Part shown: piece after piece, positions 41,201 to 47,200 of the stretch
Layout: each line of letters opens with the position of its first letter
Position numbering within the stretch: the first letter of the stretch is position 1
Assembly: GCA_963695335.1 (NCBI GenBank)
Contig: OY968764.1
Location: 896,001-960,000 of the forward strand
Length of the DNA stretch: 64,000 nucleotides
Reading direction: 5' to 3'
DNA from: an uncultured bacterium
GTDB taxonomy: Bacteria > Babelota > Babeliae > Babelales > Vermiphilaceae
Position numbers: made by a program

Positions 41201-44200
41201 TACTATTATCTTCTTCAGTTACATCTTTGTGCTGAGCGATGTCTATCAAAAGCTGTTGCCAAGACGCTTTTTCACATTCATAAGCTTCAATGCGGCTTTT
41301 CGCAGCTTTTATACATTTTTCCTCTTCTTTGATTCTTTGCTTTTTAAGTTCTAGTGTTTGCTTGTGTTCTTCTCTTGCTTGTATTTTTTTTGTTTGAGCA
41401 TTTTCTTTTTGTTGTTTTGCCGCAATTATTTCAGTTTGTTTTCTTGTTAAACGTGATTCTATGCTGTTGATAAATTTATCGCCATCAGGGTATTGTTCGA
41501 TGGCGTTTTTCATGATTGTAATTGCATCTTTTATAGAAGGAATAATATTATGTCTAAAGATTAAAAATTCTAATGATTGTTGCACAGTATTTAACCATGC
41601 TGCAATTTCTTTTACATTATTTGTATCTAAATTTTTAAATGTTCGTAAATGAGTTATAAAGGTAGTCCAACTCTGTTCTATAGCAAGTCTTTCGTTGGGA
41701 GTTACCGTCATAGTTTTGAGAATAGTTTGTAAATTTTCAAACCGTTTTTCATCTAATGCTTTTATATCTTTTTCCTCTTGAGATTCTCCACCATACCACC
41801 ATGTAGTTGCAGCAGAGGCAGCACCTTTGACAGCACCAATTGCTCTGCTGATAAGACCTTGTTCTTCAGGTGCTTCTTTTGCTTTTGGTTTGTGCGCAGA
41901 CGCTAATTCGCGCTTCATTCGTTCTAACTCTGCATTCATTTTTGCCTGTTCTGCTTCACGCATAGCTCTTTCGAGCGCCAATTTTTCTTCTAATTTTTTA
42001 TTTAATTGCAGCATTTGGCTTTCTGATATATTTGCCTGTTTAATAGCTTCTTGCACGGTAGCAGCAGTTTTGAGTTCAGCTTCTTTTTGTTTTTTTGCTA
42101 TTTCTTGTTGTTCAGCCTGCTTTTTCATAGCAGCAGTATATTCTTGTTGTGTTGGTATTTGTTGATTATATGGAATTGTAATGCCTGTTTCTGCGCTAAA
42201 TGCTTCTATTGCTTGATTAATGTTGATAGGGAACAATGTGCGATTGGCATTATGTTGTATAAGAGCAGATTCAAAGCCACTGAATAAACTTTCTTGTGTA
42301 TAATTTTGAAATAACAGATCTTTTGCTAATTCATACGTTTTAATGACCATGGATTCATTTAAGGTATTATTGCTTCCTGTTGTTGCAATCTGTTGCAAAA
42401 GATCATTCCATTCTTCAAGAATAGTTTTTTGAGTGATTGGCGCAGCTGCTGGCTCCGACTTCGCCAAGGCTTCGTCGGACAGGGCTGGGGCTCCTTCAAC
42501 TTCGATTGGAGCTGGAACAGTTTCAGCCACCGGTTCTGGTTTTGCTTCTTCTTTTTCAGCTTCTTTTGGAGTTTCAGCATCTTTTAATGTTGTAACATAC
42601 GCATCAATGGTATCATCAAATTCTTTAATGAGAGCATACGTACTTGCACTGAATTCATCTTCTTCTATTTTAATTTTCTCAGTTATTGTATTAAAAAATG
42701 CTGATTTAAGAGCTTCAGCAATAGTTTTATCTTGATTAAGAGCTTCTTTGGCGAGGGTAATTGCTTCTTCTTTCCAAGAATCGGTAGGAATGTTACTATT
42801 TTTATTCCAATGTTGGCCTAGCTCTTTGAGAGATTCTAAATGAGCATTCCATGTTTTTATAGCTTCTTGTTCAGGTGTAGCTGAGGTAGCTTGCCCTTCG
42901 GAGCTCGTAGAGCGTAGTAGGGATTCAGTTGTGATTTGTTCTTCAATATTGTCTTGTACATTTTCTTGAGACATTTCTGGAGAGGTTTCTGGGGTAATTG
43001 CACCAATAATAATATCTTTGGTCTCGTTTTCTTGATTAGAAATAGTGCCGACCACTAGTAAGACAGTTGCGATAACAAGATTTTTTGTTTTTTTCATCGT
43101 ATCCCCCTTACTATGGTTCTTTAATACAGATACACATAATCATATTCACTATTGCAGAGTTTATTGTAAAAAAGCAACAAACCTTAAAAATTGTAAATTT
43201 TGACAAATGTCAAAAAGTGTGCAATCATTTTTAATGAATGGGATACAAAAAGAAGCCCATCGTCGCAAGGAGTCATAATGTCTTATATATCACTTTATAC
43301 TAATTCAGTTCTATCGAGATCTTCTCTTTTCATATCGTTGTTTTCATATATGTCTGCCATGTGCAATTCTCTTATGATGGCCTAAAGGCCAAAATATTCT
43401 ATTTTTTACCCAATTTCTATTTTTTATACATTCATAGTTATTGATACATATCGTTTATATAGCATGTAAAGCGCTTTTATTTTTAATATGGCGTAGAGGA
43501 ATTATATATGAAACATTTTTTTGCATTACTTACTGATTTTGGTTTTGATTTTGCGGTCGCATCTATTAAAGGGGTTTTATTGAAAGCATTTCCTGATGCT
43601 CAGATTATTGATGTTGATCATACGATTGAAAAATTTAATTTGATCAATGCAGCATTTGTGATTGAAAAAATATATCGTTTTTTACCAAATAATACAGTTT
43701 TTTTGTGCGTTGTTGATCCAGGAGTCGGTAGCAACCGTGATATTTTGTGTGTGGAGTTAGGATCCTATCGTTTTATTGGACCAAATAACGGTATTTTTCA
43801 TTATCTCTTAAAGAAAGAAGGTGTGAAAATTTATAAAATCGAACAACAATGCTTTAATTCAGAATCAGTTACTTTTCATGGACGAGATATTTTTGCACCA
43901 GCAGCTGTTAGTCTTACTGCTGGTGATTTTTCTATATTGAATCCAATTGCTGATGACAAAATTGTACGATTGCATAATTTAGGTGATCAAATTAATAATG
44001 GAGTTATTACCTATATTGATAGCTTTGGTAATATAAAAACAAATATTACCGTGGCAGAAGATCTATATTCTGATGACTATGTTAATCTTGTGATTAATAA
44101 TCAAATACATAAAGTTATATTTACTCGCACATTTACTGATGTTGAATCGGGGGAATTGCTTTGCTATAAAGGAAGTAACGCTACTTTAGAGATAGCAGTT

Positions 44201-47200
44201 AATTTAGGTTCTGCTCAAGAAAAACTTGGTGTTAATGTTGGTACAGTAATTTCTCTTAATTAAATAGGATATAAAATCATGATTTTAGTTATTTTTATGT
44301 ACGCACTTTTTGCAAGTACTTTCACTCTTGGCAAGGCAGCACTATCATATGTGTCGCCATTTTTATTTATTGGTATGCGCATGATATTAGGTGGAAGTTT
44401 ATTGCTTGCGTATTATCGATGGGTTAAAAAACAAAAAATTGTAATAGATAAATCAGATTATAGACTGTTTTTGTGTATTGTATTGTTTCATATATTCCTT
44501 GCATACACGCTTGAATTTTGGGCGTTAGAATGTGTTACTTCAGCAAAGGCATGCTTACTTTATAATTTATCACCTTTTATTACGGCAATTTTTTCTTATC
44601 TTTTATTTTCAGAACGGTTATCATCTCGGCAAATATGTGGCTTAATTATTGGTTTTTTAGGATTTATTCCTATTTTGGTTGCTCAAACACCATTAGAAAA
44701 AATCGGTTTGCACGTCAGTTTTTTATCAATTTATGAGATAGCTCTGATTGCATCAGTCACTTCCAGTGCATACGGTTGGATGATGGTTAAACATTTAATG
44801 AGTAGAAAATATTCATTGTTGCTCATTAATGGCATCAGTATGACAGGTGGCGGAATTTTGGCACTACTTTTATCGCTCAGTACAGAAGGTTTTACAGGTC
44901 TTAAAGTAACTTCAGGTGAAGAACTGATGATGCTTGGTGGATATTGTTTTGCCTTGGTTATCATTGCAAATATTATTGGATACAATTTGTACGGTTACTT
45001 GCTCACCCGTTATTCAGCAACGTTTTTATCATTTGCTGGTTTTATAACACCACTTTTTGCGGCATTGCTTGGGTGGATGTTTTTGGGTGAACAAGTAACT
45101 TGGCATTTCTTTGCAACTATATCCATGGTAGTTCTTGGTCTGTATCTATTTCATGAGAAACGGTTGGCTCTTTAAATCTTTCATTATTAACCCATTGAGG
45201 TACCAATTTTTTTGCGTACGCCAAGTATGTCATAAGACCATTTCTTGCTATTTTTTGACCGTTAATAATACCAGTTGGTGGGAATGCTATCCCAATTCCA
45301 TATAAATCTTGCCCAATGATACCGTTATTTTCATCAAATAATAACTCAGATGATCCATTGACTAAAATTGGATTTGGTACATAACCAATTGCATAAATAG
45401 CTTTTGTGCAACGTGGTAATATAGCTTTTCTATTTTCAGGAGTGCTGAGTACGCGGCTTAAGTTGCTTGGCGGATTAACTTCAAGTACATTTTGTGCCCA
45501 TGCGGCTGTTGCGCCTTCTAATCCTGGAGCTCCGTAAAAATAAGGATCTATATAAAAATTAATAATTTCTTTAGTAGTACAATGTTCAGCTAAATATTTT
45601 AAGATAAGAATTGCCGAGTGCATTCCTCCAAAAACAGCAACACAATCATCGCAATTTACATATGTTGCCAATTTTTCTTTATTAAGCGCATCATCAAGTG
45701 GAATCTCTGGAATATCATAGTTAAGACTTTTTGGATAAGCACCAATTGCTAAAATCACTTTTTGTGCATTAATATCCCCATCAGTGCCATGTAACACCCA
45801 ATAATCACCGTTGTGATCGAGTGCAGGAATTGTATCTTGGAAAGAGTGAACTTGAGCGCGTAAATAAGCACAAAAATCTATTAAAGGATCAACAATAACG
45901 TGTAGGTGTTGGAATTCATCCATATTATATGTATAAAGTGCTTTTAGTGAAGGGGAATCGATATCTTTTAGAAATGGGCAGCCATGAACATACATTAATA
46001 AACGGCTTGTTTGTACGTTACCTGGTACATCGCGATAATATTTTCCCATTCTTCCAATATTAAATTCAGGGTCAATCCAGGCGATTGTTTCAGGAGCGAT
46101 GCCACATTCTAATAAATGTGCCAAAGCAGTGATACCTGCAACTCCTGCACCAATCACTGCCCATGAATAACAGTTAGGTTGTATATTACGTTGTATGTTA
46201 GAAAGGATACTGTTTTGCTGAGCAAGCAAAAGAATCAGTAATAAAAGTTTTGACTTCATAAATGTCTTTACCATATTTTGCGATTTTTAATATTTTTTTT
46301 CTTTTTACTTTATAAAAGTTTGTTTTTCTAAAGCAATAGTTTTGTAATTCAATACTATTTTTATTGGACTGTAATGGTATACTTGGGCTGCGCATTTTAC
46401 ATAACTGAAACAGAAAGATGATTATGAGAAGAAAAAAGCAATTATATTTTACAATGTTACACATGTTGTTGTGGTTTGGACTTTTGCAACCGGATGGGTT
46501 TGCTGAACACACATTAGTTAAGTATGAGTATGGATTTAAACCAATTCAGCAATTTATTGTAGGCAACAATGTTGTTGTGGTTGCCGAAGGTGGGCAACTG
46601 CAGCAAAATTCTATATCTCACACGATGAGTTATGTTGCTGACTGTTTTATAAAAATTCAGATTAAAGATATCTGTGTTTGCGCAGCACCAGATCAAAAGT
46701 TTTATTCATGCACCAGAAACGATTGGGTGAATGCGCAAGCATTGCATGTTTCAGAACAGTTGTTGTGCGGAAGTGGTAACATTGTTTCTGTTGATGCAGT
46801 GGAAATGGTGCATAAGCAACAAAAAATGCATGCTTTTACCGTTGAGACAAGTCATATCTTTTGTGTAACACCGTATGAAATTATTGCACATAATGTTGAT
46901 CCTGTTTTTACGATGGGAACTGCTACTGCTACTTTAGCTGTTGCATGCCCACCAGCAGGAATTGCTGCAGCTGTTGTGCAAGGAGTGGCATGGACTGTTC
47001 TTGGTTGTGTAATGTTTTGCAAACATAGAAAAGCTCATAGATATGAATTACAACATAAGGGTTGTTTTTCTCCTGAAAGTAGAAATGGTACAACAGCACC
47101 AATAGCAACTGGCTGTTATGAACCTGTGCAAAATGTTCCGATTGTTTGTGATATAAAAGCTGGTAAAGCAGATCTTCCTACTCAGTTTGTTCACGAAATT

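Follow-up and report, generated by a model that had tools for sequence, protein, structure and literature searches.

The locus described here raises the question of why a host-dependent bacterium that appears unable to make S-adenosylmethionine (SAM) should carry, next to a putative SAM carrier, an enzyme that cleaves it. The 64,000-nt window that we analysed lies on the single contig of an uncultured member of the Babelota (GCA_963695335.1; 94% complete, 1018 genes). Searches of this genome matched neither MetK nor archaeal MAT, nor AdoHcyase (SahH) or PNP/MTAN, as the first-pass annotation had reported for SAM synthetase, SAH hydrolase and MTA/SAH nucleosidase. Methionine synthesis (MetE and the homocysteine S-methyltransferase/MetH domain) and the methionine importer component MetQ were also unmatched in these searches.

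The hydrolase and the carrier

An intact ORF at 43508..44263 (+), already recognized as a SAM hydrolase gene, encodes a DUF62 hydrolase (adenosine-forming; P0001) of 251 aa without signal peptide, in which both Pfam domains score above their cut-offs (SAM_HAT_N, 7.5e-46 and 155.9 bits; SAM_HAT_C, 4.6e-22 and 78.6 bits). Its two-domain fold has PH0463 and a Thermotoga protein as best Foldseek matches (TM about 0.8), and D70, R77 and H124 align with D68, R75 and H127 of PH0463, which we take to be the catalytic set of that enzyme. This Asp/Arg/His set is invariant in 14 of 14 Babelota hydrolase copies. P0001 shares these features, and the lack of an insertion of fluorinase length, with PH0463, MJ1651, StDUF62, Saci0719 and HVO_0781. 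An assignment as fluorinase or chlorinase was rejected, as the fluorinase model gave 59 bits against 141-150 for hydrolase models and the PDB ranks agreed. Unlike the characterised enzymes, P0001 belongs to a host without MetK, is preceded by a Met-rich leader, adjoins a SAM-carrier-like gene and falls in a distinct DUF62 clade in a quick tree. Its best NCBIfam matches, the (R)-SAM hydrolase models NF058624 and NF053629, are also far under cut-off (150/350 and 141/470 bits), but these models are narrow and the low scores are therefore no sign of a different selectivity.

The second gene starts 15 nt after the end of the hydrolase on the same strand (44279..45175, +) and encodes an EamA/DME carrier of 298 aa (P0002). 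Pfam finds EamA in two stretches (3.7e-37), that is, two EamA domains, and the paralogue g00012 at contig positions 12911-13828 is 39% identical, so that its earlier description as one of two related EamA carriers stands. Homologue alignment suggests that P0002 belongs to a subfamily like the chlamydial SAM/SAH carriers: it is 36-40% identical to environmental chlamydial EamA proteins in nine of nine cases (one automatically named SAM/SAH transporter in UniRef), it has 42 conserved columns in common with chlamydial SAMHT-like proteins, and Chlamydiota are commonest in its top Atlas cluster. Like CTL843/CT580 of Chlamydia trachomatis, it has two EamA domains in a genome without MetK and SahH/MTAN (PMC3104491). 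CTL843 exchanges SAM for SAH or SAM, and methionine did not compete with its SAM uptake (PMC3104491). Read from its subfamily, P0002 would be a SAM carrier, keeping in mind that sequence similarity is a poor guide to carrier substrate (Binet et al., PMC3104491). It differs from CTL843 in being multi-copy in Babelota, in that here the carrier gene sits with a hydrolase gene behind a Met leader, and in that the likeness was drawn through environmental chlamydial homologues. The subfamily is present in 255 of 261 genomes, with 1-7 copies per genome, and in 20/20 MetK-positive ones, with no anticorrelation between carrier and MetK. As it is phylum-wide and found in all MetK-positive genomes in up to seven copies, the copies may differ in substrate. 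The proposal of a second, dedicated SAM carrier was overstated, since P0002 has an orthologue in all 10 congeners and 9 of these lack the hydrolase.

The hydrolase itself is rare, as noted before, although a six-frame search raised the count from 12 of 260 genomes to 16 of 261 (two copies being split); it is thus dispensable, 245 genomes lacking it. None of the 16 has MetK, a mutual exclusion that is not significant across genomes (P 0.27). A carrier of the P0002 subfamily lies within two genes of the hydrolase in 10 of the 16, slightly different from the half given for EamA neighbours earlier, and among 23 metagenomic loci examined it is the next gene in 10 of the 16 where that gene is visible. 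This adjacency is far above chance given 1-7 carrier copies per genome, with kin that are not independent. Outside Babelota, no EamA gene was found beside DUF62 in 77 named loci (by BLAST to P0002, which distant EamA proteins could escape), and 56 long DUF62 proteins contained no hydrolase-EamA fusion, which is weak evidence. For a joint transfer of both genes as a cassette the two trees, both quick ones, disagree: the carriers of G029 and G112 cluster with copies of another family, a grouping that the hydrolase tree does not mirror.

A Met-rich leader upstream of the hydrolase

Upstream of the hydrolase we found a short ORF that was absent from the first-pass annotation (43278..43385, +; P0178). 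It encodes 35 aa with internal Met residues at 25, 28, 33 and 34, ends in Met-Met-Ala-stop and is preceded by a Shine-Dalgarno site at 43267..43272 (+). The exact peptide is not in the protein collection, and a leader-type ORF occurs at only one of the 1018 gene upstream regions of this genome, the hydrolase locus. Across 31 leaders, Met accounts for 82 of 898 internal residues against 19 expected, and SD-like words precede 19 of them. The best promoter site upstream is a candidate sigma-70 promoter with extended -10 (43200..43228, +; 10/12); the number of sites in the scan equals chance (14 vs 13.7 expected), and two congeners (L035 and L037) have this -35 hexamer at the matching place. As to expression, no RNA data set was listed for the locus, and one run of uncertain kind gave a single 195-nt piece.

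The last Met and Ala codons of the leader form the stem of a 5-bp hairpin with the stop codon in its loop (43378..43391, +). It is a local helix, since the whole region folds like its shuffles (z 0.57), and its position is 83% paired compared with 10-46% in slid windows. Anchored on the stop codon, the leaders covary: 25 combine Ala with GCC[A/T] (GCCW) and 5 Gly with GCCC, with one exception (n=31). The hairpin is followed by a U-rich, G-poor spacer (43392..43507, +), a candidate Rho-loading or termination zone judged from base composition in a genome that has Rho; T makes up 54 of the 122 nt after the leader stop, and across leaders these stretches have 48% T and a C/G of 1.4, where coding DNA has 30% and 0.9. 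The leader region contains 0 terminator-like sites of the canonical intrinsic kind, and no Rfam family, riboswitch or T-box, matched the leader or the region upstream of the hydrolase.

Attenuation by a leader peptide is known from the trpL/hisL class and, in Rho-dependent form, from the geometry of tnaC-like systems. The Babelota element resembles them in its short, conserved ORF preceded by an SD site, in the clustering of cognate codons, in a conserved 3'-end structure with compensatory change and in a pyrimidine-rich spacer in a Rho-bearing cell. It departs from those systems in that the sensed codon, Met, is also needed for initiation and in that the control codons are themselves the 5' arm of the hairpin. 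A classical trpL-type attenuator was rejected, as we found no intrinsic terminator, no significant long-range fold and no alternative antiterminator helix.

The leader is intact in 13 of the 16 hydrolase genomes (one further has only the motif and one a variant) and present in 14 of 21 assessable metagenomic hydrolase loci. It goes with the hydrolase and is kept where no EamA gene comes next, in G031 (tandem leaders), G033 (two leaders) and G219. The carrier of most congeners has none. Genome-wide scans found true leaders only at hydrolase loci, the lone congener case being G254, where the hydrolase was lost and the leader retained on the carrier. A wider Met-leader regulon was rejected, the other pattern or model matches lying inside ORFs, in the wrong orientation or without a leader ORF (30 of 37 pattern matches examined as loci; a second scan covered 151 of 261 genomes).

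Host SAM as a probable methionine source, and the alternatives

We consider it probable (about 0.6) that hydrolase and carrier form a methionine-starvation operon that cleaves imported host SAM for methionine. This is supported by the conserved Met-codon leader on the hydrolase together with the Met T-boxes on Bacillota DUF62 genes; the missing methionine synthesis and MetQ and the lack of MetK in all hydrolase genomes also count for it. T-boxes respond to uncharged tRNA, and the Bacillota hosts of the DUF62/ECF cassette usually keep MetK. The mts cassette of Bacillota presumably includes DUF62. In Enterococcus, a T-box whose specifier is AUG precedes DUF62 and an ECF importer, and in Listeria DUF62 alone is under a Met T-box; mtsABC has been named among Met T-box-controlled genes (PMC3766115, supplement). 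By analogy, the two arrangements may represent convergent logic: both have DUF62 first, an importer second and Met-specific 5' control, but the carriers (EamA vs ECF) and the sensors (translated leader vs T-box) are unrelated.

When Met-tRNA is ample, the ribosome would complete the leader and depart, and hairpin and spacer would permit termination, probably Rho-dependent. When it is short, a ribosome stalled on the Met codons would shield the site and both genes would be transcribed. P0002 would then import host SAM against SAH or SAM, as CTL843 does, and cytoplasmic P0001, to judge from its family chemistry and intact triad, would split it into methionine for protein synthesis and adenosine. 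A second Met-codon cluster lies 8-11 codons ahead of the leader stop, and a ribosome held up there would not cover the hairpin, which counts against the direction of control proposed here.

Against feeding stands the preference of characterised DUF62 enzymes for inactive (R)-SAM, which is too scarce as food. Three enzymes, from Salinispora, Sulfolobus and Haloferax, act selectively on (R)-SAM, and DUF62 deletions raise intracellular (R)-SAM with growth unharmed (bioRxiv 2025.08.29.672840). Intracellular epimerisation would supply ~4,000-fold too little methionine, with the rate taken from PMC12120602 and rough values for pool and demand. The first-pass annotation gave this selectivity too little weight. 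StDUF62, in turn, cleaved (S)-SAM once (R)-SAM was exhausted, and its authors doubt repair as the physiological role (PMC12120602). A useful methionine yield predicts that the Babelota clade cleaves (S)-SAM too, or draws heavily on host (R)-SAM. More tentatively, at somewhat under even odds, an undescribed Met-codon attenuator switches on a catabolic, (S)-SAM-accepting DUF62 enzyme with a SAM carrier, and the host methyl donor is mined for methionine.

The locus could instead serve metabolite repair, the carrier admitting both SAM epimers and the hydrolase removing only inhibitory (R)-SAM, with methionine a minor by-product. The (R)-selectivity and the deletion phenotypes speak for it, their harmlessness fits the easy loss of the hydrolase across Babelota, and homocysteine S-methyltransferase, the alternative repair route, was not found here. 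Methionine status would then be a proxy for SAM load, with the genes possibly on when methionine is plentiful, an inverse control that the upstream Met codons could yield. We think this unlikely, as Met-codon control has no evident use for a repair enzyme, T-boxes govern DUF62 in the two Bacillota records, congeners with the same carrier, taken to import SAM, do without the hydrolase, and the two MetK-bearing archaeal model organisms are not SAM importers. More doubtful still is a methionine operon whose carrier moves methionine or another product, with a hydrolase that is extracytoplasmic or acts on a related sulfonium compound. Hydrophobic N-terminal extensions on four Babelota hydrolases (G009, G031, G033 and G245), the NhaC-family carrier downstream of the hydrolase in G219 and the leader on the G254 carrier would suit it, but P0001 has no such extension, methionine was no competitor of CTL843, most congener carriers are leaderless and the 42 columns link P0002 to SAMHT-like proteins.

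The first-pass annotation saw SAM as food for both methionine and adenosine. Its methionine part gains from the Met leader and the Met T-boxes; its adenosine part is unsupported in this genome because no salvage enzyme could be assigned, and the two-product version as a whole seems to us improbable. The reaction does yield both, and of five hydrolase genomes tested two have adenosine deaminase and two a true dNK. In this genome, though, searches for PNP/MTAN, for a nucleoside hydrolase and for an adenosine deaminase were all negative. The dNK match proved to be thymidylate kinase, and of the two PRT matches one looked by eye like a ComF-like protein and the other like an orotate-PRT fusion. 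The genome also encodes two TLC nucleotide carriers, and the control element is tuned to Met rather than to purine. Under the methionine-starvation reading adenosine would probably be a by-product, unless the single PfkB kinase (contig 256828-257919), whose substrate is unassigned, phosphorylates it.

Implications for DUF62 and for the Babelota

A literature search that covered few subscription journals returned no paper on this module or on a bacterial Met-codon leader. The physiological role of DUF62 is disputed in print, between (R)-SAM repair and something unknown, and a Met-codon-controlled hydrolase in a SAM-auxotrophic cell makes a sharp prediction, namely induction by starvation and cleavage of (S)-SAM. 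The locus also offers the first clue from gene context to what is transported by a carrier family that nearly all Babelota genomes possess, and the leader would be an unusual example of attenuation that relies on Met codons. If a Met-codon attenuator does switch on an (S)-SAM-accepting hydrolase, DUF62 would have a second physiological role besides epimer repair and, with the T-box/ECF cassette of Bacillota, SAM-to-methionine scavenging would be a convergently built pathway. More speculatively, such a drain on host SAM could alter host methylation.

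The hydrolase-carrier unit and its genome

On the forward strand, the window carries an ORF with both DUF62 domains (P0001, 43508-44263, 251 aa) and, after a gap of 15 nt, an ORF with two EamA stretches (P0002, 44279-45175, 298 aa), in agreement with the first-pass annotation of a SAM hydrolase followed in the same direction by a carrier. Because the upstream neighbour is divergent and the downstream neighbour convergent, the unit comprises these two protein genes; no terminator-like site was found between them, and the counterpart ORFs overlap in some relatives. The absence of SAM synthetase, SAH hydrolase and MTA/SAH nucleosidase claimed earlier was also borne out in this genome (a single contig, 94% complete), since family searches returned no MetK, SahH or PNP/MTAN, nor any archaeal MAT, MetE, homocysteine methyltransferase domain or MetQ, while each search gave matches in control genomes. 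By its named relatives, the lineage belongs to Babeliales/Dependentiae. At 46418-48382, an ORF with a pretoxin HINT domain and then two DUF6980 genes resemble a polymorphic toxin-immunity module.

The nearest solved structures to P0001 (predicted model pLDDT 86) are a Thermotoga protein and PH0463, with chlorinases and fluorinases ranking behind. Its D70, R77 and H124 align with D68, R75 and H127 of PH0463, which we take to be the catalytic set, and are unchanged in 14/14 Babelota copies. The hydrolase is present in 16 of the 261 genomes of the phylum, the gene being split in G009 and G213, and in a quick tree the 14 full copies tested formed one clade together with a single Parcubacteria-labelled sequence. 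Several Parcubacteria-like contigs (L119, 886-5426; L211 and L215, with L214 and L219 alike) carry Babelota-clade DUF62 genes that lack the leader described below and have GT1, unknown and GT2/GT9 genes immediately downstream, with an HD-domain gene upstream in L119; this arrangement possibly reflects a different use of the enzyme. Four hydrolases (L076, L077, L079, L090) are extended at the N terminus by hydrophobic stretches that look like signal peptides or anchors. Among the long DUF62 forms (P0123-P0163), many are fused to a metallophosphoesterase domain, and there are several fusions with a TYW1-like radical SAM enzyme. A small cupin (~113 aa) adjoins the hydrolase in 5/16 genomes and one metagenomic locus (L079 6024-6359; L084, L086, L077, L090, L204), and that of G033 has a Met leader of its own.

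Of the two genes, the carrier is the constant partner and the hydrolase an accessory. The P0002 subfamily occurs in 255/261 genomes with 1-7 copies each (seven in G095), including 20/20 MetK-positive genomes, and P0002 has an orthologue in 10/10 congeners (71-88% identity), among which the hydrolase is confined to G255; in the two closest congeners the same genes flank the locus, but the hydrolase is missing from it. Hydrolase and carrier are neighbours in 10 of the 16 hydrolase genomes and in 10/16 metagenomic loci with the next gene visible. As the linked carriers spread over at least three supported groups in the tree, their association with the hydrolase is either ancient and often lost, or has been re-formed. 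P0002 shares 36-40% identity with nine chlamydial proteins other than CTL843, about the closeness of its own paralogue, and UniRef names one of the nine a SAM/SAH transporter. Binet et al. (PMC3104491) report that CTL843 is 34-38% identical to its Chlamydia-like homologues, and warn that similarity is a poor ground for assuming SAM transport. Across many families a carrier orthologue follows rny-ymdB, often in tandem copies (L039-L054, L059-L073); in the window rny (37247-38829) and ymdB (~38833-39652), intact in relatives, are each broken across several frames by local assembly indels or decay.

A methionine-rich leader

Upstream of the hydrolase lies a 35-codon ORF (43278-43385, forward strand) that has a good SD and in which codons 25, 28, 33 and 34 are Met; the hydrolase is the only gene among the 1018 of the genome preceded by such an ORF. 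The leader travels with the hydrolase: it is intact, with a Met-Ala/Gly-stop end, in 13/16 hydrolase genomes (G009 has the motif only, G208 a variant and G213 none) and in 14 of the 21 metagenomic loci that could be assessed, two others having too little upstream DNA and L218 being the G213 contig. It is present twice in G033, is kept on the carrier alone in G254, and in G219 stands at a hydrolase followed by an NhaC-family carrier. In G031 (L076 4855-8582) two tandem leaders precede, all in the same direction, the hydrolase, a YhhQ queuosine-precursor carrier, tgt and a SpoU methylase. Apart from the G254 carrier, phylum-wide pattern and model searches found no convincing leader away from hydrolase loci, and no Rfam family matched it.

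The conservation is evident in 31 leaders, with Met at -2 in all (the alignment anchor) and at -3 in 22, a second Met cluster at -8 to -11, and 82 internal Met in 898 positions vs 19 expected. A hairpin over the stop is built from the last codons, its partner being GCC[A/T] when the last codon is Ala (25/25) and GCCC when it is Gly (5/5), with one degenerate row matching neither. Since the partner changes with the last codon, it is the structure that is conserved and not alanine. A U-rich spacer lies downstream of the hairpin, and Rho was found in the genome.

Possible roles of SAM cleavage

We propose, with a probability of about 0.6, that methionine scarcity would stall the ribosome within the leader and so relieve termination, and that the carrier would then bring in SAM for the hydrolase to cleave, regaining methionine. 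The direction of this control and the substrate of the carrier are what we infer. The stereoselectivity assumed for the enzyme matters as well, as internal epimerisation would, by a rough estimate, supply ~4,000-fold too little methionine, so that the model works only if the enzyme cleaves (S)-SAM or the host supplies (R)-SAM at a high rate. The published (R)-SAM selectivity of DUF62 enzymes is a real obstacle to SAM as food: the Sulfolobus and Haloferax enzymes cleave (R)-SAM as sole substrate and DUF62 deletions raise the (R)-SAM share with growth unharmed (bioRxiv 2025.08.29.672840), and the Salinispora enzyme prefers (R)-SAM, attacking (S)-SAM later (PMC12120602). The former results would fit a role in epimer repair, but the authors of the Salinispora work are sceptical of repair as the true role, and we consider it unlikely here. 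That the carrier moves methionine while the enzyme acts outside seems less probable still.

The first-pass annotation had SAM feeding the cell with both methionine and adenosine. The methionine half is favoured by the leader and by the Met T-boxes of Bacillota DUF62 genes, but the adenosine half is unsupported, as nucleoside hydrolase, adenosine deaminase, PNP and a true dNK were all not found in the genome; its single PfkB could be a nucleoside kinase, although it scores under every curated cut-off, and dual feeding therefore appears very improbable. Two PRT matches resemble, by eye, ComF and an orotate-PRT fusion, and the genome has two TLC carriers. At contig positions 230376-232085, a 569-aa ORF is, also by eye, an apparent fusion of a dihydroorotate-dehydrogenase-like domain and orotate phosphoribosyltransferase.

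The component families are already known; the literature searched yielded no description of their combination or of the Met-codon leader. On an Enterococcus plasmid, a T-box with specifier AUG governs an ECF S/A/T operon that begins with a DUF62 gene, and a Listeria DUF62 gene is under the same control; a published list of Met T-boxes includes mtsABC (PMC3766115). The Babelota leader and the Bacillota T-box, two unrelated sensors, thus both link DUF62 to methionine.
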